Assembly: GCA_030603365.1 (NCBI GenBank) | Contig: JAUVXV010000001.1 | Span: forward strand, 160,001 to 224,000 | Direction: 5' to 3' | DNA: 64,000 nt | Origin: Candidatus Heimdallarchaeota archaeon | GTDB lineage: Archaea; Asgardarchaeota; Heimdallarchaeia; Heimdallarchaeales; Heimdallarchaeaceae | Shown here: one piece after another, positions 10,415 through 54,394 of the stretch | Layout of the letters: the number at the start of each line of letters is the position of its first letter | How positions within the stretch are numbered: position 1 is the stretch's first letter | The notes under the pieces: generated by a model | The model's input: the letters and a program-made list of their open reading frames with translations, nothing else | Database searches by the model: none | What the model was told of the DNA's origin: nothing | Program-made: the position numbers and the translations under genes

Positions 10415-10990
10415 GTGTATTATGGTGTTAATGTAAAAGATACACTGCGTGTTCCTCCAAATAGGTTCGATGAAGATCTTACCCAAGTTCTAGCAGAGAT
10501 TGCTAGAGAAAGCTTTGAGGGTAAAATTGATCCAGATTTGGGTTTCATAGTTGCTGTAACTGATATTGCAAAAATATATCAAGGAAAACTAATCTCAGGT
10601 GATGGAGGGGCATATTATGAAACAGATTTCGGGCTACTGTGCTATCTACCGGAAATTGATGAGATAGTATCTGGGGAAGTTGTTGAATGTGTTGATTTTG
10701 GAGCTTTTATTAGAATCGGCACAATAGATGCACTTTGTCATGTTTCTCAAATCGCTGATGATTACTTTCGATACATACCTAAAAATGCTCTTCTAAGAGG
10801 GGATAAGTCTAAACTAGATTTATTAATTAATACTAAGGTTCGAGCCAGAGTAATCGCAGTAAGTATTGGTAAAACTGCAATTCGTGTTGGTTTAACCATG
10901 AGACAAGATGCGCTTGGTTCGCTTGATTGGGTGGAAGAGTGGAAGAAGGGATTAAAAACCCCAGCTAAAGCAACAGAGGAGGCTTCATAA
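10415..10990 (+). CDS. rpoE1: RNA polymerase subunit E' (Rpo7)
   Basis: RVPPNRF, GDGGAYY, S1 domain GEVVECVDFGAF..CHVSQI, GLTMRQ. Confidence 0.95.
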   Translation: MYYGVNVKDTLRVPPNRFDEDLTQVLAEIARESFEGKIDPDLGFIVAVTDIAKIYQGKLISGDGGAYYETDFGLLCYLPEIDEIVSGEVVECVDFGAFIRIGTIDALCHVSQIADDYFRYIPKNALLRGDKSKLDLLINTKVRARVIAVSIGKTAIRVGLTMRQDALGSLDWVEEWKKGLKTPAKATEEAS

Positions 10991-10991
10991 G

Positions 10992-11180
10992 ATGTCCAAA
11001 GCGTGTAGAGTGTGCCATATGATTCATGAAAAAACAGCAAATATGTGTACAAACTGTAAAACACAAGACCTTTCTTCAGAGTATACTGGTGAGATATTTA
11101 TAATTAACCCAGAAGATAGTGAAGTAGCAAAAAGAATGAAAATAAACAAGCAAGGACATTATGCATTAAGAGTCCGGTGA
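10992..11180 (+). CDS. spt4: Transcription elongation factor Spt4 (RpoE'')
   Basis: KACRVC..CTNC zinc finger, NPEDSEVAK, GHYALRVR; follows rpoE1. Confidence 0.95.
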   Translation: MSKACRVCHMIHEKTANMCTNCKTQDLSSEYTGEIFIINPEDSEVAKRMKINKQGHYALRVR

Positions 11181-11737
11181 AACTTGTGGATTCTTCTAAA
11201 ATCGGTTATTTTTTCCTTCCAGAAGAAGAAAGAAAACATTTCAAACAACCTTTAGATGTTTTATACAAATCTGAATCTGAAATTCTAGCTCTAATATCTC
11301 ATTTAAAAGAAGATAAATCTATTCCAAAGATTATTACAGTGGGGGATGTATGTACTCAAACCCTAATTGATCATTCTATTGTTCCTGATTTGGCAATAAT
11401 TGATAACTATGTTCAAAGAAAAAAATCCTCTTTGGTAGACCTATCACATTTTACAGTTTTACAAGCCTCAAATCCAGCCGGCACAATTACTCTTGAAGCT
11501 TGGGAAACGATTCGTCAAGCTGTGAAAATAGATGATAACAAAATAATTATAAAAATAACTGGGGAAGAGGACTTACTGGTGCTCCCAGTAATAAGTGAAA
11601 CACCTTACAATTCAAAAGTCTTATATGGACAACCAAATGAAGGATTAGTAAGCGTCACGGTTACACACAAAATAAAAACAAAAATCCAAAGTTTAATTCA
11701 AAAAATGGTGAAGATTAATGAAAATTACAATCGCTAA
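11177..11737 (+). CDS. GTP-dependent dephospho-CoA kinase (DUF359 family)
   Basis: ITVGDV, PDLAIID, NPAGTI, GEEDLL, YGQPNEG; conserved position between spt4 and rps24e. Confidence 0.9.
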   Translation: MKLVDSSKIGYFFLPEEERKHFKQPLDVLYKSESEILALISHLKEDKSIPKIITVGDVCTQTLIDHSIVPDLAIIDNYVQRKKSSLVDLSHFTVLQASNPAGTITLEAWETIRQAVKIDDNKIIIKITGEEDLLVLPVISETPYNSKVLYGQPNEGLVSVTVTHKIKTKIQSLIQKMVKINENYNR

Positions 11738-12014
11738 CAAAACTGAAAACAAACTTCTTGAAAGGATAGAAATCGAAGTAGAGATTGATCACCAAGGTGA
11801 GGCTGTTCCTACAAGAGATTCAGTTTTATCTAAAGTTGCTGCTCAGGTTAATAGAGATAGGAATCAAGTAGTATTAATTAAAATGGAAGCTAAATTTGGA
11901 ATAGGTATAAGTAATGCACTCATCCATGCTTATGAATCTCATGAAAGAGCTATACTAGTTGAAAAAGAACATCTTTTGAAAAGATCAGGACTTATTGAAG
12001 AGAAGAAGGAATAA
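11718..12014 (+). CDS. rps24e: 30S ribosomal protein S24e
   Basis: ENKLLERIE, PTRDSV, FGIG, E+HLLKR. Confidence 0.92.
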   Translation: MKITIANKTENKLLERIEIEVEIDHQGEAVPTRDSVLSKVAAQVNRDRNQVVLIKMEAKFGIGISNALIHAYESHERAILVEKEHLLKRSGLIEEKKE

Positions 12015-12027
12015 TAACGGTGAAAAA

Positions 12028-12198
12028 ATGAGCGAAACACACAAAAAATACAAGATTGAAGGTAACAAAGTTACTCGTGTAAAGAAAGTTTGTGAGAGAT
12101 GTGGGGATGCAGTTTATATGGCAGAGCATCCTGACCGACAAACTTGTGGAAAATGTGGATTTACTATTTATAAAAGAGGACGTAAAGCTTCTGTTTAA
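12028..12198 (+). CDS. rps27ae: 30S ribosomal protein S27ae
   Basis: YKIEG..CERCG..YMAEH.DR.TCGKCG; ATG 12028 is preceded by GGTGA. Confidence 0.95.
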   Translation: MSETHKKYKIEGNKVTRVKKVCERCGDAVYMAEHPDRQTCGKCGFTIYKRGRKASV

Positions 12199-12250
12199 CA
12201 TTCTTTTCTTATAGAAAAATTTAAACCGTAGTATTTTCTAGTTACTATTA

Positions 12251-12318
12251 GGCGAATGACTGATTGAGACGGCTTAGATGTGCCTTCACACACATGATAT
12301 AAAAACTCAAAGGACGCC
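12251..12318 (+). ncRNA. Box C/D-type small RNA with two K-turns
   Basis: GGCG/CGCC terminal stem; C-like ATGACTG (12256-62) with D-like AGGA (12311-14); D' TAGA (12275-78) with C' ATGATAT (12294-300) closed by a TGTG/CACA stem; 12- and 10-nt spacers; TTTAAA about 26 nt upstream. Confidence 0.65.
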
Positions 12319-12421
12319 CTATTACATCTCCTTCTCAGATTTAATGTGTTCTCTAACCTAATAACAAAGATTTAAATCATAGTTGAAGAATTGACTCACG
12401 TAAATATTCGCTAAAGGTGTT

Positions 12422-12907
12422 ATGCAAATGAAATCTCTTGAAATGGAAATCTCAGAAAAACTATCTGAGTATATACAGAAGTTTGTAGATGAAGGGATTT
12501 TTGAATCAGTTGAAGCTTTTGCTAAACATTCTATTTATTGGTTAGCAGAACTTTATGGTTTTGGAGAACAATATGAAGGAAAAAGCCTGAGTTCATTAAT
12601 TGCAGAAATTATTGGTTCAAAAGTTAAAGTGCCTGCTAGCCAGGTTCAAGAAGTTAAAACAGAAGTAAAAACGGTCGTTAAAGACTTCAAAATACCAAAT
12701 AAAGACCTTATTCTTGAATCCTATAGTTCATCCAAGTTTATGTTTGAAGACGCGATTTTTGCTGCATGTCAATTTGCAGCTTTAAAACAAGGAAATCCTC
12801 CAATATCAAAAGAAGAATTCGCTAAATCATTGGATCAGATGGCAGAAGCTGGAATTCTTACCAGAATTCAGAAAGGCGAAAAGATAATGTGGAAAAGAAA
12901 TGAGTAA
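12422..12907 (+). CDS. Hypothetical protein: ribbon-helix-helix-like N-terminus plus winged-helix-like C-terminus
   Basis: LEMEISEKLSEYIQKFVDEGIFESVEAF (RHH pattern); SKEEFAKSLDQMAEAGILTRIQKGEKIMW (wH pattern). Confidence 0.55.
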   Translation: MQMKSLEMEISEKLSEYIQKFVDEGIFESVEAFAKHSIYWLAELYGFGEQYEGKSLSSLIAEIIGSKVKVPASQVQEVKTEVKTVVKDFKIPNKDLILESYSSSKFMFEDAIFAACQFAALKQGNPPISKEEFAKSLDQMAEAGILTRIQKGEKIMWKRNE

Positions 12908-12925
12908 ATTTTTTTTCTCTTCCTT

Positions 12926-13606
12926 TTATTTCTTTAAAGCATATGCCATCTGTTGAAGTACTTCTTTTGGATCTTTTGCTTTAACAAATCCTGAAGCAAG
13001 AAGAACTCCTTGGGCACCCATTTGAACAGCTTCAGCAACATCATTGGATGTTGTGACACCAGCTCCAACCAAAGGTTGAACAGCACTACTTATTTCTTTT
13101 ATTGCGGATAATGTTTGTATTACTAATTCTGGCTTTGTTGTTACAGAAACACCACTTCCAATTAACTCAGGTGGCTCCATAGCACATGCTGCAGGTTCTA
13201 AGGAAGCAATAGCTTTACTAGTTTGGATATTATTTGAACAAACACATGTATAGAAATCTAATTTTTTAGATTTTTGAATTACACTTTCAATATCTGCAAG
13301 TTTTAATCTGTGTTCTGAATGGTTTACTAAAGAGCCTATTGCCCCGGCTTCTTTTAATGTCTCTATAAGATTGTTCCCGGTATAACTACCTGTATTATTG
13401 GCATCAACATGTTGAGCTAAAACAGGTATGTCTACTTCTTGAGCAATTAAATAAATATCAGCAGTTTGTGGACAAACAGCTATTGAAATTCCAGATTCAA
13501 TAGCTACCTCTTCTGCAATCTTAGATAATGCTAATCCCCTTCTGCCTATGGTCTGCTCATAATTTTTGTAGTTTAAGATTATGACTGGATAACTGATTTT
13601 TGACAT
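12926..13606 (-). CDS. tpiA: Triosephosphate isomerase (archaeal type)
   Basis: NYKNY, AQHVD, NHSEHR, EPPELIG, GAGV, GVLLASG. Confidence 0.96.
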   Translation of the reverse strand: MSKISYPVIILNYKNYEQTIGRRGLALSKIAEEVAIESGISIAVCPQTADIYLIAQEVDIPVLAQHVDANNTGSYTGNNLIETLKEAGAIGSLVNHSEHRLKLADIESVIQKSKKLDFYTCVCSNNIQTSKAIASLEPAACAMEPPELIGSGVSVTTKPELVIQTLSAIKEISSAVQPLVGAGVTTSNDVAEAVQMGAQGVLLASGFVKAKDPKEVLQQMAYALKK

Positions 13607-13726
13607 AAAGAAGAATTTTCACGACCTGTTTAAAAACGTTGCTCAATAATAACTAGTACGACTACAGCTGTTGAAATCTTTAAATACATTAAACAATAAA
13701 TAATCAATAAGAGATGTCTAAAACAC

Positions 13727-14248
13727 TTGGTGATTTGCTTGTATGGTGCTGATCAAATAAATACAATTCTTCATGAGATTATAACAAGTGATGCTAATAT
13801 TAATCATGTAATATTAGCTGATAAAACAGGTTTAACACTAGCTTATTCCTCACGATTTGCCTTTGATGAGTTTGAAACAGAGGCGTTAGGTGCTATTGCT
13901 AGTGCAGTCTATTTAGCTAGTGAACAACAAGGAACAAATGTAGGTCTAGCGGAACTAGACATTATCATATCAGAATTTTCTGATGGTCTAATTTTAGTAG
14001 CGAGTTGTGGAAGTACTGTTTTGTGTCTGATTACAGACACTGGAGTAGCTTTAGGTATGGTTAGAAGAACCATGAAAATAGCAGCCGAGAAAATTAGAAA
14101 TATATTGGATGTTGAAGCTAAGCCAGTTACTACACCTGAAGCTCAACCTGTTGTAACACCGCAACCAGTTGTTGCAGAGGAAAAGAAAGTTCAAGATGAG
14201 TTCATCTCCGATTTAGAATTAGCTTTAAGGGAATTAGAACAATTTTAA
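13727..14248 (+). CDS. Roadblock/LC7 (MglB-like) protein with a Pro/Val/Thr linker and C-terminal amphipathic helix
   Basis: VILADKTGLTLA, ALGAIASAVY, IISEFSDGLILV, VALGMVR; alternative TTG start at 13739 after GGTGA. Confidence 0.85.
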   Translation: MVICLYGADQINTILHEIITSDANINHVILADKTGLTLAYSSRFAFDEFETEALGAIASAVYLASEQQGTNVGLAELDIIISEFSDGLILVASCGSTVLCLITDTGVALGMVRRTMKIAAEKIRNILDVEAKPVTTPEAQPVVTPQPVVAEEKKVQDEFISDLELALRELEQF

Positions 14249-14271
14249 ACACACTAAAAGTGTAAGGATGT

Positions 14272-15108
14272 TTGATGAATATGGCTGCTCCTACTGGAGG
14301 AATAGAGAAAATAGGAAAGAAAGACGAATCCAAAGATTCAAGGGGTGAATTGATTTTAACAGGAATTCGCTCTTTAGATCAGAAACTTGGTATGGAAATG
14401 GCAAAAAGAAGAGGTATACCTCAAGGATCTTTTATTCTTGTTAGTTACCCTTCTGATACAGTTATTCCCACTTTGTTCATCCAGAGAATTCTTCTAAACT
14501 GGGCTAAAAAATCTAGTGATAATGTGATTTTCTATGTTCATAGTGGTCGTCCCTATGATCATGTTCAAAGCTCATTTAAAGCATATAATTGGGATGTAAA
14601 ACCCTTTGAAGGAAAAAACTGGTACTTTGAAAATATGTTTGATTTATCTAGTACATCAATGACTTCTGCTTTAAAACTAGGAAGGATTGAAGTTAAGAGA
14701 AAGACCTATGTAAATAGAATTATTGACCGCATGTATCACGTAAAAGAATCTCAAAATAAACAGTGTTTCAGTGTTTTTGATGATTTACTCTGGATGAAAG
14801 AAGATCAATTGGATGAAGATTCGAATGCATTAATAACTTTCCTTAAAAGTACTTTAATGAGTCTTACTAAAATAGGTGGAGTACATTTCTTTTTACTTCC
14901 TCAGGGTGTTTTAGACCCAGTAGCTGAAAGAATAATCATGAATGCTGCTCAAGGAATATTCCACTTTACGAGAAATTCTGTGGGTAGTAGAATTAAAGAT
15001 ACTTTTGCGATAACTAAACTCATGGGAGTAGCTTTTGTTAGTGAAACCTTGGATATCACTCCATCAGAATCAGAAGGTTTCAAAATAGAATCAACAGCTA
15101 AAATATAG
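14272..15108 (+). CDS. KaiC/RAD55-like RecA-fold protein with degenerate Walker A
   Basis: TGIRSLDQKLG..GIPQGSFILV start, Walker-B-like VFDDL, AQGIFHF, ITKLMG, C-terminal GFKIE; no GxxGxGKT. Confidence 0.72.
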   Translation: MMNMAAPTGGIEKIGKKDESKDSRGELILTGIRSLDQKLGMEMAKRRGIPQGSFILVSYPSDTVIPTLFIQRILLNWAKKSSDNVIFYVHSGRPYDHVQSSFKAYNWDVKPFEGKNWYFENMFDLSSTSMTSALKLGRIEVKRKTYVNRIIDRMYHVKESQNKQCFSVFDDLLWMKEDQLDEDSNALITFLKSTLMSLTKIGGVHFFLLPQGVLDPVAERIIMNAAQGIFHFTRNSVGSRIKDTFAITKLMGVAFVSETLDITPSESEGFKIESTAKI

Positions 15109-15903
15109 ATGATATTAATGGAAGGTTATGAGAAAAAAACAACTGAAGAAGAACCTGAACTTATAGATATAGCATCTGAAATTTCAAAGCTTTCTGATGA
15201 AGTCAATGAGTTAAAAGATAATATGAAATCTCCAAAAAGGAGGGGAAAAAGCGAAAAATCCTCTAGATTCAATGACACTTCCAAAATTGAACTATCTCCA
15301 GCAATTGAATATGTAAACGAGTTATTAGAAAATTCTTCAGAAGCCATTATTTCTGAAATGAAATCAGAATTTTTCAGATTATTTAATTTTATCTCAAGTA
15401 TGTTCTCTGTAACACCATATCAATCAATAAACAGAACTATTCAAAAAGAAGAAGATTCTGATGATGAATTAACAGCTGATGATGTCATATTAGTATCAGA
15501 ATTTCGAAAGGAAAAAGAGATGTTACAACTTCTTCTTGATGAACGTGAATCATTAATTTACGAACTATCAGATCAAATTGTTGCTATTGAAGCTGAAAAG
15601 AAAGTGTTAGAAGATAAAATAGAAGAGATTGACACAGATAAAACAAAATGGTTAAAACAAAAGAATGTCCTCGAAAGAATTGTAACTTCAGATCCAAGGT
15701 TTAATATTATAACACTTCTAAGAAGAATGGGTGTAATAGCGCCTATACAACTATCTTTCGTTCTTGGAGTTTCTCTCTCACAAACCAGACGTTATATCTC
15801 TGAATTGGAACAACTGAAAATCCTTCAAGTAAAAGAAGATGGAACAGTTTCTCTACATACTGATTTTGACGAAGATACTATGAATATTAAAATTCAAGAG
15901 TGA
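15109..15903 (+). CDS. Coiled-coil protein with C-terminal winged helix
   Basis: Heptad-rich acidic central region; DPRFNIITLLRRMG..QLSFVLGVSLSQTRRYISELEQLKIL HTH. Confidence 0.65.
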   Translation: MILMEGYEKKTTEEEPELIDIASEISKLSDEVNELKDNMKSPKRRGKSEKSSRFNDTSKIELSPAIEYVNELLENSSEAIISEMKSEFFRLFNFISSMFSVTPYQSINRTIQKEEDSDDELTADDVILVSEFRKEKEMLQLLLDERESLIYELSDQIVAIEAEKKVLEDKIEEIDTDKTKWLKQKNVLERIVTSDPRFNIITLLRRMGVIAPIQLSFVLGVSLSQTRRYISELEQLKILQVKEDGTVSLHTDFDEDTMNIKIQE

Positions 15904-15939
15904 TAAAATAATAATAAAATAAAAAAAAGGATTTTGGGT

Positions 15940-16509
15940 TTATTGTTGAGCATAGAGTTTCTCATAGAAGAGAACGATATTTTTCAGTAAGGTTTTGAAA
16001 GCTTCATCAACATTCTCACCAGTCTTAGCAGAAGTTTCTATGTAAGGTACAGTAAATCCTGACCAGGCAGAAAGAGATCTAGCATATTCTTCTGATTGTT
16101 CTCTCATGATTGGATCTTTCGCAGTTGCTCGCAAATCAGATTTATTTCCAATCAAAACAATTGGAACAACTCTGTTACTATTATTTTTAAGAAGTTCAGC
16201 TATCCACGAAGGAATATTCTCAAAACTTGATCTTCTGGATATGTCAAAAACCAATAAACATCCAGAAGTACCGCGGTAATAAACTTCTCGAACAGCTGAA
16301 AATCTTTGCTGTCCTGCAAGATCCCAGATCTGTGCAACAAAATCTTGATCGTCTATACGTAATCGTTTAACAGCAAAATCTGCCCCTATAGTCATAGAGT
16401 ATCCGTCTTTAAAGCCCTCACCTAAATAGGTTTTACGAAGGCTTGTCTTACCTACGGCACCATCGCCTAGTAGGGTGATTTTGAAGATTTTCCGTTGTCC
16501 GGCGCCCAT
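15940..16509 (-). CDS. Rab-like small GTPase
   Basis: GDGAVGKT, TIGADF, WDLAGQQRF, YYRGT, LVFDIS, GNKSD, ETSAK; ATG 16509 preferred over TTG 16530. Confidence 0.93.
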   Translation of the reverse strand: MGAGQRKIFKITLLGDGAVGKTSLRKTYLGEGFKDGYSMTIGADFAVKRLRIDDQDFVAQIWDLAGQQRFSAVREVYYRGTSGCLLVFDISRRSSFENIPSWIAELLKNNSNRVVPIVLIGNKSDLRATAKDPIMREQSEEYARSLSAWSGFTVPYIETSAKTGENVDEAFKTLLKNIVLFYEKLYAQQ

Positions 16510-16700
16510 TTTATGTTCCCCTTTATACAATTTATTTATTCTCTCGGATACTATTTAAATTATTTGTTATTTCTCGTTTAGCAATGTTTACCCTTTTTTG
16601 GATAATAGAATCCTTACTTTGGTTTTTTGTCATATAATTTAATTGCTTCTTTTATCATCGGAAATATAAATTAAAAAATGGAAAAGAAGGTTTACTCTAC

Positions 16701-17261
16701 TTAGTGCTCGTGTAGATTAAAAACATCGATCCAAGGATCTACAAATGAGAACAATATAAATATGAAGATAGATATGATAATTATTCCAATTATAATGATT
16801 TTTACAGATAGATTGAATTCCAATTTTTCTGTATTCTTATCAACTATTGACACAACAACACCTGTGATTAATACAACTAGTAAAACCCATGTTAATTCCC
16901 ATCCAAAGGATAAAGGTAATCCAATAATAGCTGGAGCTAAGTACCAAACTAGGAATATAATCCATGGTACCAATAAACTTGATAGTAATCTAGAAAAAAC
17001 AAATGAGTTTTTGTTTTCTATCTTCTTTCTAACCACTAAATAATCAATTCCAATTAAAAACAGGTAACCGAAAAATCCCATTTTCAAGTGTTGGAAGACT
17101 GATTCATCTTTCCCAGAAATTGCTTGAAAGAACGGATTATTATTCCAATAATAAAGATAATGGAGAATCGCAAAGAGAGCAACGAAAATTAAGCTTTTTA
17201 AGGCTATATACCCTATTTCTTTCCATTGATCTTTAGTTAATGTTTCAGTGATTTTTTTCAT
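16701..17261 (-). CDS. Integral membrane protein (DUF6512-like)
   Basis: About five hydrophobic helices; LHYLY and DESVFQHLKM motifs. Confidence 0.55.
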   Translation of the reverse strand: MKKITETLTKDQWKEIGYIALKSLIFVALFAILHYLYYWNNNPFFQAISGKDESVFQHLKMGFFGYLFLIGIDYLVVRKKIENKNSFVFSRLLSSLLVPWIIFLVWYLAPAIIGLPLSFGWELTWVLLVVLITGVVVSIVDKNTEKLEFNLSVKIIIIGIIIISIFIFILFSFVDPWIDVFNLHEH

Positions 17262-17387
17262 TTAATCATCTCAGAATTTTCATCCTAACTTACAACTTTG
17301 GATACTTAAAATTTCTCAAATTGCACAAAATATTTTCTTTCTTTACAGTTCAAAAAATATAAAATAGAGATATTATTCTTTTTCATA

Positions 17388-18038
17388 ATGAATCCACTTG
17401 ATGAGAAGAAGAATATGAAAATTCTTGATCTCTTAGAAGAACATTATACTAAATTTAGAGGAGGTTTAGCAAACTACTCCTCTCCTTTCCAATTGCTTAT
17501 TGCAACTATTCTAAGTGCACAGAGCACAGATAAACAAGTTAACTCAATTACTAAGAAACTTTTCTCAAATTATCCGGAACCAAGTTCTTTTGCGACAGCA
17601 ACACTAGAGGAAATAGAAAAAGCAATTTCAAAAGTTGGATTGTATAGAAATAAAGCAAAAACGATTTCCATCGTATCAAAAACGATTATCTCTGATTATA
17701 ACTCAGAGGTACCAACATCTCTAGGTGAACTGGTTAAATTGCCAGGAATAGGTCGAAAAACAGCTAATGTCCTTCTTAACGATTGGTTTGAAATCCATGA
17801 TGGGATTGCGGTCGATACACATGTAAAACGCATCTCATATCGATTGGGTTTTACAGAAAAGACTATTCCTGATAAAATCGAATTTGATCTTATGAAGATA
17901 ATCCCACAGGATAAATGGGGACGAATTACTCATCTTTTCATTTCACATGGTAGAGCAATATGTAAAGCTCAGAACCCTAAATGTCAAGAATGCTTTCTGT
18001 TGGAATATTGCCCTAGGGCCGGGGTTGATGTGGATTAA
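17388..18038 (+). CDS. nth: Endonuclease III
   Basis: LLIATILSAQSTD, HhH LPGIGRKTAN, AVDTHV, Fe-S motif C-x6-C-x2-C-x5-C. Confidence 0.96.
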   Translation: MNPLDEKKNMKILDLLEEHYTKFRGGLANYSSPFQLLIATILSAQSTDKQVNSITKKLFSNYPEPSSFATATLEEIEKAISKVGLYRNKAKTISIVSKTIISDYNSEVPTSLGELVKLPGIGRKTANVLLNDWFEIHDGIAVDTHVKRISYRLGFTEKTIPDKIEFDLMKIIPQDKWGRITHLFISHGRAICKAQNPKCQECFLLEYCPRAGVDVD

Positions 18039-18156: not shown

Positions 18157-20463
18157 ATGATTAAAATGTCAAAAATTGATATTCTTCCGCCTTTGTTAAC
18201 TCGTATTGGTTTTAGTGAAACTGATATCAAAGTTTATTCAGCTACACTAGGTCTTGGAAAGGTTACAATTGGTGAATTACTTGTTGTAACTGGGATAGAT
18301 CCTTTAACTCTTATTCAATCAGTAAAAAATCTAGAAGAGTTAGGTTTTCTAAAGAAAATAGCGGGTAAAACACCACAATATTTCGGAATGTTACCGTTTC
18401 TTAAGGAATATATAATTATTGAAAAAGATGCTCTTTATTCTCTAGATAGCGTAATTAATGCTCTAAAAGGATCCAAAGAGGAATATAAGCAAAAGAAAAC
18501 AAAATTTGGGGGAACTTTGGAATTAACAGGAGAAGGAACTGTTTTCGATATACATGTGGTCAGTGGTTTAATAAAACAAGTCGTAGATGCATTATCTCAA
18601 AATTATATTGATTATAGTGATCAAGCTGAATCTACAGCTTCTGAATTTGTAGGAGAAAGCTGTGCAGAAATCGAAGGGTATCTGTCGAAAGTGATGGATC
18701 AGCCTTTTGTATTTTCCACACAACTTGAAACATTTGTTCAAGAATTAAATGCTTTTGTTAAGCAATTTCATTATACTGCTAAACAAAATAATGATGTGCT
18801 TATTAAAGCAACAGATGAGAAACTAAAGTCTGCTTTTAGTAACGTTTCACAGATTATTTCAAATGGTTTGGATGCTCACACAGAAAATCACAGTGAGTTT
18901 CTAGAAAAATTGGCACCTGAACTTGATAATGTTCTCAAAGAATTAGTAAATCAAGTGACAAAGACACAAGAGTCTTTTATTGATAATTACAACAACATTT
19001 GGCAAGAAGCTTACAATTCTTGGACTTCAGAATCTAAAAAGGTTATTGAAGAATTATCAAACGAGGTAAATAACCTGTTTTCTGAGCAAATAAAACAAAC
19101 ACAAGAGCTTCGAAGAAGTGTTGAGCAGATTGACAGACAAACAAACTTTCTCTCATCAAAAATCGCCGAGGCAATAAATTCTATTGATACATCAACAGTT
19201 CTAAAATTAGGTAAAGCTCGAAAACAAATTGAATCACCATTGACTGATGCACGTGATACTGTGAGAAATCTAGCAAATGATCTGAATGAAAGTGGATTAC
19301 AACTAATAGATCAGCATGTTCTTTCACTAAACGATGTTAGAGATGCAATTCGTTCAAAGTTGGATCGTTTCCAAATTGCTGGTGAAACTACAATAAGAAC
19401 AAAGAAAAACGAACTTACTGATACCACAATTGAAAAAATAGACTTATTACCAAGTGAATTGCTTGAATTAATCCAAACTCAAGTTGAGAAATATGCTTCT
19501 TCTTCATATGATTCATGTTTAGAAGTCACTGAACAACTCAAACAAACCACAAATGAACAAATTTCTTCTACAAAAGAACAAATCTTACAAGATTTCGGTT
19601 CTCATGATGTTGGAAAGACTCAGATAATTGATAAAATTCAGAATGACACAATAAAGGAGCTAGAAAAATCACAACAAGATGTTGAAAAAATGGGTCTTGA
19701 ATTGAAAGAGAAAATTCAAAACTCTTTAGACATGTTCAAACAACGAACTACAGATAAGCAAAACCAACTGGCAACGCAGTTAACTGATGCAAAACAACAT
19801 CTGAAGGATTACAAGGATGAACAAAAAGATCAGATTGTCAAACAGATAACTGACGGTGAAGAAATACAAATTAACACACTAGTATCCCAAGTTGCATCTG
19901 TAATTAAAGATGTAGATGAAATTCTGGTGTCACAACTCGATTCACTTATGGCAAAAGCTATGACCTTTTATCAAGTTATTAATACTCGAGAGGATGAACT
20001 TCGGCAAATAGATACTGCCGCATCATCCTATTCCTTGGAAGGGCAATATAATACATCAATTATTGTTGGCGAGGAAGCAATCAAAGCAAGTATAACTGAT
20101 ATCGCCATGCGATCCAAATATGAACTTCTTCTTGTTACACCTGATGTTGATGAAGATCTTCTTAAAGAAATGATGCAATATACAAAAGCACAAAGGATTA
20201 CATTAGTCTCTTATTTTGATAAAAGGCATCAGCCTCTTCTTAGACCTCTTGCAGAAAGGTTTACTGGATTGAAACTTAAGCATTATGAAAAGAAGGATGT
20301 ATATTGTGCAATATTAGATGGAAATCATGAAGCTATCTTTGCTTTCTTAACTTCTGAAGGTGTTCCCATTGCTATCAGAACCACAAATGATTTGCTTTTA
20401 GGTCTCTTCAAATCTGCAATAAACAGAGATGTATTATTCCATTCAAGCGATGTAGAAGTCTAA
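18157..20463 (+). CDS. TrmB-like winged helix + long alpha-helical/coiled-coil region + PLD-like C-terminal domain
   Basis: GFSETDIKVY..LEELGFL N-terminus; about 530 aa of Q/E/K/L-rich helix; AKYELLLVTP-type strand (SKYELLLVTPD) and YCAILDGNHEAIF. Confidence 0.6.
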   Translation: MIKMSKIDILPPLLTRIGFSETDIKVYSATLGLGKVTIGELLVVTGIDPLTLIQSVKNLEELGFLKKIAGKTPQYFGMLPFLKEYIIIEKDALYSLDSVINALKGSKEEYKQKKTKFGGTLELTGEGTVFDIHVVSGLIKQVVDALSQNYIDYSDQAESTASEFVGESCAEIEGYLSKVMDQPFVFSTQLETFVQELNAFVKQFHYTAKQNNDVLIKATDEKLKSAFSNVSQIISNGLDAHTENHSEFLEKLAPELDNVLKELVNQVTKTQESFIDNYNNIWQEAYNSWTSESKKVIEELSNEVNNLFSEQIKQTQELRRSVEQIDRQTNFLSSKIAEAINSIDTSTVLKLGKARKQIESPLTDARDTVRNLANDLNESGLQLIDQHVLSLNDVRDAIRSKLDRFQIAGETTIRTKKNELTDTTIEKIDLLPSELLELIQTQVEKYASSSYDSCLEVTEQLKQTTNEQISSTKEQILQDFGSHDVGKTQIIDKIQNDTIKELEKSQQDVEKMGLELKEKIQNSLDMFKQRTTDKQNQLATQLTDAKQHLKDYKDEQKDQIVKQITDGEEIQINTLVSQVASVIKDVDEILVSQLDSLMAKAMTFYQVINTREDELRQIDTAASSYSLEGQYNTSIIVGEEAIKASITDIAMRSKYELLLVTPDVDEDLLKEMMQYTKAQRITLVSYFDKRHQPLLRPLAERFTGLKLKHYEKKDVYCAILDGNHEAIFAFLTSEGVPIAIRTTNDLLLGLFKSAINRDVLFHSSDVEV

Positions 20464-53557: not shown

Positions 53558-54394
53558 CTACAAATCTTCTAGTTTCTTCAAAGCCTTAAGTAATTCTGCT
53601 TTATCACCACTTACAGCCTCACCAAACAATTCAGCAGACTTTTTCTCTTCAGGAGCAGAAGCTTCATCTGGTTCAGTTTTTGCAACAGGAGGTTGGAAAA
53701 CTTCAGTTGATGAAACAGGTTCATCTTGCTTTGGTGGAGCTGGAATAGCACCTGAAACCTCTTTTGATATGGGACTTACATCTCTCTCTCCAGTTTCAGT
53801 AACTTGTGTTGCAGGTTTAGGTATAGCTGCTGGTGCAGGTATTTCTGCAGGAGCTTTAGAAATAGGTTCCACTTCAGGTTCTGTTGCTCTGGTTGCAGGA
53901 GGTGGTGTTGGAGTAGGTATTGAAGGAGCTTCAACTGTAGGTAGTACAGGCTCTGTTACTGGTTCTGGTTTAGGTTCAGGAGTTACAATCTCTGGTGTTG
54001 GTGGTGGTGCAATTGGAGCTTCAGGCATTTCCACGATTTCTGGTTGTGTTTCTTTAACAGCTACATCTTTGAATGCTTGAACATCTGTGGGTTCAACTAC
54101 AGACTCTTGGTGAACACTTCTTGCAGCTTCAATTAAGAGAATTCTTTCATTTAGACTATCTAATCTTTTTTCTAATTTTGTTACCTGCTCAAAAGAATCA
54201 GATGTAGATATTTGAGTTCCAGGTTGAATAGCACCTGTTGCCCCATCTTCTAAATGTTGAATTCTTGCTTTTAGTGATACAACTACTTCATCATAATCTT
54301 TGAATCTTTCTTGCACAGCTGCGACTATGCTTTCAACCATATTTTTAATCATGTTGACAGAATTCACTAGAGATTTTACTTCATCCTTTGTCAT
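53558..54394 (-). CDS. Coiled-coil + Pro-rich disordered protein with C-terminal amphipathic helix
   Basis: N-terminal heptads; a P/E/T/A-rich stretch of about 130 aa; ends GDKAELLKALKKLEDL. Confidence 0.7.
   Translation of the reverse strand: MTKDEVKSLVNSVNMIKNMVESIVAAVQERFKDYDEVVVSLKARIQHLEDGATGAIQPGTQISTSDSFEQVTKLEKRLDSLNERILLIEAARSVHQESVVEPTDVQAFKDVAVKETQPEIVEMPEAPIAPPPTPEIVTPEPKPEPVTEPVLPTVEAPSIPTPTPPPATRATEPEVEPISKAPAEIPAPAAIPKPATQVTETGERDVSPISKEVSGAIPAPPKQDEPVSSTEVFQPPVAKTEPDEASAPEEKKSAELFGEAVSGDKAELLKALKKLEDL

Follow-up and report, generated by a model that had tools for sequence, protein, structure and literature searches.

In the MglA–MglB system, the Roadblock protein MglB binds the small GTPase MglA as a dimer via helix alpha-2 and adds no catalytic residue, relying on the Arg53 and Gln82 of MglA itself (PMC3199381). 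A survey across prokaryotes found MglB coupled to 404 of 488 MglA-type GTPases but to none of the 121 of Rup/Rab type, and gave the absence of the G3 aspartate as a mark of MglA (PMC4316618). The tail helix of Myxococcus MglB binds MglA and adds exchange activity; in an AlphaFold3 model of one Thorarchaeota MglA/MglB pair (2026), the tail helix was not placed on the GTPase (PMC13408092). For Asgard archaea, passages of Tran et al. (PMC10933270) describe the GTPases as hard to match to their regulators, with operons rarely in common, and passages of Liu et al. (10.1101/2020.10.19.343400) report an Asgard core with three Roadblock and two small-GTPase families, most of these genes lying outside conserved neighbourhoods. 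Archaeal iKaiC (inactivated KaiC-like) domains and KaiC-like signalling hubs were treated by Makarova, Galperin and Koonin in 2017 (cited in PMC5847659).

The locus considered here belongs to a Heimdallarchaeaceae archaeon and lies within an analysed stretch of 64,000 nucleotides (hereafter, the window). Three co-directional genes, encoding a Roadblock protein, a KaiC-fold protein and a coiled-coil/winged-helix protein (the trio), face a convergent gene encoding a Rab-like GTPase. According to the sequence comparison, the trio would be an operon built around a displaced MglB-like regulator, which would act in trans on MglA together with an order-specific pseudo-ATPase and a helix-turn-helix protein; in our judgement, this explanation has about an even chance of being correct.

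Genes and proteins of the locus

The trio is encoded on the forward strand. Its first gene encodes an MglB-like Roadblock protein of 169 aa (13739..14248); the frame is open from 13727, TTG 13739 is the probable start, a GGTGA sequence is found at 13729–13733, and the relatives begin with MYGADQ. The second gene, encoding a single-domain KaiC-fold protein (14272..15108), likely starts at ATG 14275, which fits its length in the database (277 aa). The third gene (15109..15903) encodes an acidic, helical coiled-coil/winged-helix protein, and the Rab-like small GTPase gene (15940..16509, ATG start) is located on the reverse strand. The gaps between the four genes are 23, 0 and 36 bp, the last separating the stop of the trio from that of the GTPase gene, and the ORFs thus agree with the arrangement described in the first-pass annotation. 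It should be noted that ATG 15118 is a possible alternative start of the third gene, so that the gap between the second and third genes may be 9 bp rather than 0.

A TATA-like box, TTTAAATA, was read upstream of the trio (13679..13686, forward strand), and the same sequence, the putative own promoter of the Rab gene, was read upstream of that gene (16552..16559, reverse strand). A T8 tract behind the Rab stop (15921..15928, reverse strand) is likely the archaeal terminator of this gene. These elements, whose functions are predicted, fit two transcripts, and the facing Rab gene is probably a separately transcribed neighbour and not part of the unit. A promoter scan with a bacterial model, applied to this archaeal host, gave a chance-level result, and an Rfam search of positions 10900–17400 gave no match.

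The Roadblock protein matched the Robl_LC7 domain (PF03259, E = 1e-7), and its Roadblock/LC7 fold is nearest to MglB, Myxococcus MglB being its best solved relative (E = 6e-7). Its score against the Thermus MglB equivalog model was far below the cut-off (21 bits against 200), and none of the solved Asgard Roadblocks was recognised as a close match to this family in the structural comparison. A profile search detected the family in 142 of the 151 Asgard genomes, so that it is near-universal; the protein encoded in the window is its sole member in this genome.

The product of the second gene matched the KaiC ATPase model PF06745 just under the cut-off (E = 1e-5). Its predicted structure consists of one KaiC domain (pLDDT 84), for which Foldseek returned KaiC, PH0284 and FlaH (TM approximately 0.65, E = 6e-13). 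The Walker A motif is replaced by YPSDTVIPT, the site of the catalytic Glu by HSGRP and the arginine finger by KLMG. No orthologue in the order retains the Walker A lysine, the catalytic glutamate or the arginine finger, and Walker B Asp170 alone is kept; this motif loss predicts a catalytically dead protein, as the first-pass annotation had proposed. Orthologous-looking proteins from one family of the same phylum (f14) and two of the same class (f5 and f6) clustered with the window protein (support 97 in a quick tree) and likewise have no Walker A GK[ST]. Among 61 relatives, 54 carry one copy of the gene, which argues for a maintained pseudo-enzyme and not a decaying gene.

In the third protein, one long helix of 75 residues (120–194) is followed by a C-terminal winged helix (195–252), which starts with a DPR[FY] motif. 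Foldseek returned weak matches to MarR, ArsR and CggR domains (best E = 3e-3), identifying a generic winged helix only; Sul12a matched with E = 3.5e-5, and all matches in a protein atlas search were below 0.9. The whole protein has a pI of 4.6 and its winged-helix domain is mildly basic (pI 8.5), while the invariant residues D195, R197, Q214 and F217 fall outside the recognition helix. Strong orthologues are confined to this order; weaker coiled-coil/winged-helix relatives in other Asgard lineages had no neighbours in common with it.

The convergent gene encodes a Ras-domain protein (E = 5e-49) with intact G1–G5 motifs, which is nearest to Rab and has no C-terminal (prenylation) cysteines; its closest solved relative is Thor-Rab (E = 1e-39). 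It is 93% identical in Heimdallarchaeum, where the identity of RpoE is 68–70%. Switch I reads SMTIG and G3 reads WDLAGQ; the MglA-type arginine is absent, and the protein falls outside the MglA family. Thus, the domains assigned to all four products in the first-pass annotation were recovered by profiles, by the KaiC model with Foldseek and by the helix/winged-helix architecture.

Conservation of the three-gene unit

The genomes compared were grouped by family: f1 is the host's own family, f2–f4 belong to the same order, f5–f6 to the same class and f7–f25 to the same phylum. Close relatives carry the labels Heimdallarchaeota AB_125, Heimdallarchaeum endolithica, H. aukensis and Heimdallarchaeaceae, and more distant ones are labelled Kariarchaeaceae and LC_2.

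The order Roadblock, KaiC-fold, winged helix was intact in three of the four families of the order, namely, f1 (three genera), f3 (four genera) and f4, with approximately 40% identity of the KaiC-fold proteins across families and with different flanking genes, which upholds the operon that had been proposed from the window. The f2 genome retains the KaiC-fold gene followed by the winged-helix gene, with the Roadblock gene on the opposite strand at a distance of 1.2 kb. Two f3 genera and three metagenome contigs have the trio split, its parts often lying within approximately 15 kb of each other, and one f1 genome (L047) has no winged-helix gene at the locus; no strong copy was found across this fragmented genome. 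The breaks in several lineages, together with the absence of the winged-helix gene from the L047 locus, mean that the three proteins do not have to work as an obligate complex. With these exceptions, gene order shows the trio to be a unit.

These exceptions bear on the possibility that the genes are co-transcribed without their products sharing a complex: the Roadblock protein would serve MglA, and the KaiC-fold and winged-helix proteins would be a regulatory pair of their own, such as a pseudo-ATPase that controls a transcription factor, or unrelated passengers. The splits and the f2 arrangement would suit such a division, as would the distribution of the genes, the orthologues of the KaiC-fold and winged-helix proteins having the same order-limited range and the Roadblock being pan-Asgard; in Haloferax, the KaiC-like protein CirA and the regulator CsmR have a common regulon (PMC13286277). 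However, the three-gene order is kept in three families despite the different flanks, the separated genes often stay close together, and the pairing recurs, with a second KaiC gene followed by a Roadblock gene elsewhere in the same genome. We consider a purely transcriptional association rather unlikely. A complex prediction for the Roadblock dimer with the dead KaiC-fold protein scored under the mark, which speaks neither for nor against binding.

Candidate GTPase partners

Outside the order, the characteristic layout was a small Roadblock gene, the window-type Roadblock gene, an MglA-type GTPase gene and a third Roadblock gene. The window-type Roadblock gene was immediately followed, on the same strand, by an MglA-type gene in 26 of the 38 loci and in 12 of the 19 families, the latter being the fairer figure because related genomes are not independent; the link was absent in the other seven families. 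Three loci (L167, L180 and L194), in which ORF calling missed the Roadblock gene located there by the genome search and no MglA was found, were counted as unlinked. At none of the 38 loci did a Rab gene adjoin the Roadblock gene. The Asgard MglA-type GTPases have GRT at switch I, followed by a hydrophobic strand, and TVAGQ at G3. In a reciprocal search with a profile built from the MglA-linked Roadblocks, the window gene was retrieved with E = 5e-43 and the next-best with 1e-6.

Within the order, the window-type Roadblock gene does not adjoin an MglA-type gene. In the genome studied, all four genes of this layout are present but in three places: the MglA orthologue (contig C7, 7452–8018; E = 8e-87) directly follows the small first Roadblock gene with nothing between them, and the third Roadblock gene is on contig C14. 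The small Roadblock–MglA remnant was found across f1, f2, f4 and part of f3, with f4 also retaining the third Roadblock, and MglA orthologues were present in 26 of the 28 genomes of the order. The C7 MglA and its orthologues in the order keep GRT[IV]YFD and TVAGQ, which correspond to Arg53, the hydrophobic beta-2 strand and Gln82 of MglA. Since most other Asgard archaea encode the Roadblock beside MglA and this order has moved it, the likely target is the distant MglA and not the facing Rab. The first-pass annotation had attributed the Roadblock to a small-GTPase system, and the coupling of its orthologues to MglA-type GTPases across Asgard archaea agrees with this.

The Roadblocks of the order and those linked to MglA have helix alpha-2 (GAIxSAVxxAS..QG), the counterpart of the MglA-binding face of MglB, largely in common. 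However, two alpha-2 positions, aligned to A64 and G68 of MglB, are changed and fixed in the order (mostly Cys to Leu59, and Glu to Gln/Thr63), and these substitutions could mean an altered partner. Behind a variable Pro-rich linker, the protein ends in a conserved amphipathic segment, DEFISDLELALRELEQF (14195..14245, forward strand), in which L159, A162, L163, E165, L166 and E167 are common to at least 85% of the orthologues of the order and to at least 85% of the MglA-linked orthologues. Its leucine spacing at the extreme C-terminus after a flexible linker would also suit a MIM1-like MIT-interacting tag that connects the protein with Vps4/ESCRT, or a comparable machine, instead of a GTPase, and one more protein of the genome ends alike (window 53558–54394). 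Nevertheless, the segment is acidic rather than basic, orthologues with MglA as their gene neighbour retain it, the similarly placed tail helix of Myxococcus MglB binds MglA (PMC13408092), and inspection of the neighbourhoods revealed no recognisable ESCRT gene; such a tag appears very improbable to us.

The facing GTPase, which the first-pass annotation took for the switch of the system, was evaluated against the background of Ras-like genes in the genome: 38 of the 3256 ORFs are Ras-like, and 2.2% of genes directly adjoin one. In all four f1 genera with the locus, the Rab gene is within two genes of the trio. However, the whole block of 15 genes from eIF2-gamma to a TrmB-like gene is syntenic in f1, where the genes for TPI, endonuclease III and eIF2-gamma are as tightly linked to the trio as the Rab gene is; in both complete Heimdallarchaeum genomes, the Rab gene is inverted, with endonuclease III between it and the trio. 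In the informative genomes of f3 and f4, no GTPase gene was found behind the trio (five of five), the best Rab matches being at other loci; in a 10-contig f3 genome, for instance, the trio genes are on contig C8 and the Rab gene on contig C4. The Rab tree did not separate an f2–f4 clade from a paralogue on contig C9 as the sister of the window Rab, and neither is linked to the trio. Thus, the adjacency, as read from these gene maps, is uncommon by chance but inherited with the whole region in one family and not kept beyond it. The neighbourhood comparison that had been suggested as a check supported the trio; it did not support the Rab as its switch. The Rab is unlinked from the trio in the other families of the order, and across Asgard archaea the Roadblock orthologues are tied to an MglA-type GTPase instead.

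It may still be argued that the trio is the regulator or effector set of the facing Rab, the Roadblock acting as an exchange factor or scaffold whose partner was switched after it left the MglA operon. Besides the f1 linkage and the order-specific changes in alpha-2, several proximities would agree with this: in an f2 genome (L043), the winged-helix gene is followed after 16 bp by a different, co-directional Rab-like gene; in f5, the second or third gene from the dead KaiC orthologues is Rab-like; and, of the six KaiC-like genes in the genome studied, three have a Ras-like gene no more than three genes away (P = 0.004, or 0.035 excluding the window). On the other hand, the nearby GTPases of f2 and f5 were placed outside the clade of the window Rab. 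KaiC-like and Rab-like genes appear to attract each other generally, yet the particular pairing in the window is not conserved. The convergent orientation of the Rab gene, with its own TATA-like box and T-tract, and the equal linkage of the other f1 genes also disfavour a functional set, and the Rab, having no MglA-type arginine, presumably cannot be activated by the Roadblock through the MglB mechanism. An exchange-factor role on the Rab, as in eukaryotic longin dimers, is possible by analogy; as a whole, we consider the assignment of the trio to the Rab improbable. A similarly doubtful proposal is that, in this eukaryote-related Asgard order, a core MglB-type regulator was separated from MglA, acquired a pseudo-ATPase and a coiled-coil/winged-helix protein as partners, and is today part of a multi-subunit platform whose target is MglA together with a Rab-like GTPase, or the latter alone; if true, a present-day lineage would show a Roadblock on its way from the prokaryotic MglA switch towards Rab regulation.

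In this order, the Roadblock gene has left the ancestral-type layout of small Roadblock, Roadblock, MglA and third Roadblock, and MglA stays at another locus. If MglA is its target, the displaced protein would still dimerise, alone or with a sister Roadblock, bind the C7 MglA through helix alpha-2 and stimulate hydrolysis by positioning the Arg and Gln of MglA itself, and its tail helix may tune nucleotide exchange or dock a partner. More tentatively, the dead KaiC-fold protein, which is basic (pI 9.0), may be a non-enzymatic adaptor between the acidic Roadblock (pI 4.3) and the acidic winged-helix protein. The support for the MglA reading consists throughout of gene order and homology.

The comparison across 19 families matches a GTPase with its regulators by gene order, joining a near-universal Roadblock, a near-universal MglA-type GTPase and two further Roadblocks in a set possibly as old as the Asgard ancestor. 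The rearrangement in the Heimdall/Kari lineage would add two candidate inputs or outputs and offers a natural comparison for a shift in Roadblock specificity. It also serves as a warning that, where a genome has approximately 38 small GTPases, a neighbouring Rab gene seen in a single family is weak evidence.

Comparison with described systems

The actinobacterial conservon CvnA–D likewise combines a Roadblock, a small protein and an ATPase-fold protein near a small GTPase, and the first-pass annotation had drawn this analogy. It fails on both the kinase and the type of GTPase: CvnA is a membrane histidine kinase, whereas the ATPase fold here is a soluble dead KaiC, and CvnD is a co-transcribed group 2 MglA, whereas the adjacent GTPase here is convergent and Rab-like. 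Membership was rejected, as neither a CvnA-type kinase, sought in the window and its relatives, nor a co-transcribed group 2 MglA was found.

With the archaeal iKaiC and KaiC-like signalling hubs, the second protein of the trio has in common a single KaiC/RecA domain, the loss of ATPase motifs and strong conservation beside regulatory genes. It differs in forming a distinct clade, distant from the Pfam model and dead in all relatives aligned, and in being paired with an MglB orthologue, with no active KaiC partner in the operon.

The Asgard Roadblock and Rab-like proteins in the passages of Tran et al. (PMC10933270) have the same folds as those of the window; unlike the LAMTOR-like/Rab/DENN operon in the passages of Liu et al. 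(10.1101/2020.10.19.343400), the window locus has no DENN protein. Neither the trio nor the four-gene Roadblock–MglA operon is described in these passages. Searches of the accessible literature for Asgard or archaeal Roadblock with KaiC (with or without GTPase), and for Sec23 with Thorarchaeota and Roadblock, returned no paper, although a mention in Makarova et al. (2017) is possible. In the literature searched, therefore, the trio is undescribed; it represents a variant of a switch whose kind is known, and its putative GTPase partner is reassigned here to MglA.

The closest resemblance is to MglA–MglB of Myxococcus xanthus and Thermus thermophilus, a polarity switch in which a Roadblock dimer stimulates GTP hydrolysis by MglA in a 2:1 complex. 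The Roadblock carries a C-terminal helix behind a linker and has MglB as its best solved relative, and its operon partner in most Asgard families is an MglA-type GTPase with the intrinsic Arg and Gln and with Thr in place of the G3 Asp. The Asgard operon differs in having three Roadblocks per MglA, and in this order the Roadblock, as known here from sequence, is an orphan that shares a transcript with the genes for a dead KaiC and a winged-helix protein. By analogy, the trio would work most like MglA–MglB with added parts.

KaiC-like genes with Rab-like neighbours elsewhere in the genome

The first-pass annotation had proposed that the window's Roadblock, dead KaiC-fold and coiled-coil/winged-helix genes (the trio) form an operon coupled to a convergent Rab-like GTPase as a signalling module. 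This concept is matched better by another locus of the same genome, a co-directional operon on contig C8 encoding an active KaiC, a Roadblock-like protein (119 aa), a FIST protein and a Rab-like GTPase, in that order (L119:1912-5177; C8:19911-23176). The order KaiC, small protein and FIST was conserved throughout the family Heimdallarchaeaceae (f1) and was also found in one genome of f20, a family of the same phylum. A second dead KaiC-like gene, with weak Pfam matches to Elp4/Elp6, shares its orientation with a Rab-like gene two genes away (L120:3125-5157; C17:63124-65156), and in H. aukensis, KaiC-like and Rab-like genes lay side by side (2890578-2891916). In f14, of the same phylum, a relative of the trio's dead KaiC was divergent from a run of prepilin-peptidase, pilin-like and secretion-ATPase genes, identified by eye (L257:1168-7000).

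Flanks and recurrent neighbours of the trio and the Rab-like gene

Upstream of the trio, window 12422-12907 encodes a protein of 161 aa that resembles a ribbon-helix-helix in its N-terminal part and a winged helix in its C-terminal part; its gene adjoined Roadblock in f2 (same order) and was two genes away in f1. The intergenic gap separating it from S24e (window 12015-12421) was conserved across f1 at approximately 370-470 bp, and an Rfam search of this gap gave no match. The 768-aa protein encoded at window 18157-20463 combines a TrmB-type winged helix with a long helical region and has two to three paralogues in this genome; in f1, f2 and f3 its homologues were found close to the trio, and in f1, f3 and f5 close to the best-matching Rab (f3 of the same order, f5 of the same class). 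A protein with a thioredoxin and two V4R domains (L123:2429-4087; C1:360428) had orthologues immediately upstream of Rab in f3 and in one gene run with the dead KaiC in f6 (same class). The sole other protein of the genome fitting the loose Roadblock-tail pattern, encoded at window 53558-54394, comprises a coiled coil, a Pro-rich linker and the C-terminal helix ELLKALKKLEDL.

MglA-type GTPases and the four-gene Asgard operon

Two MglA-like paralogues (L121:4706-7919 and C1:685265-686038) are longer and carry a C-terminal insertion; one of them lies two genes upstream of a gene for a coiled-coil/winged-helix protein of 540 aa that has its DP[KR]Y motif in common with the trio's winged-helix protein. 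The flanks of the Roadblock-MglA operon (L182:3887-5521, L183-L185 and L164) contained SMC-like, ScpA-like and ScpB-like genes in several families, and in f10 (same phylum), a zinc-finger and vWA protein, Sec23/24-like as judged by eye, was encoded upstream of it. In the window's own genome, a small Roadblock followed by an MglA-type GTPase on contig C7 (L197:7452-8444) is what remains of the four-gene Asgard operon (small Roadblock, trio-type Roadblock, MglA-type GTPase and third Roadblock), the third Roadblock of which is located at C14:61477-61881.
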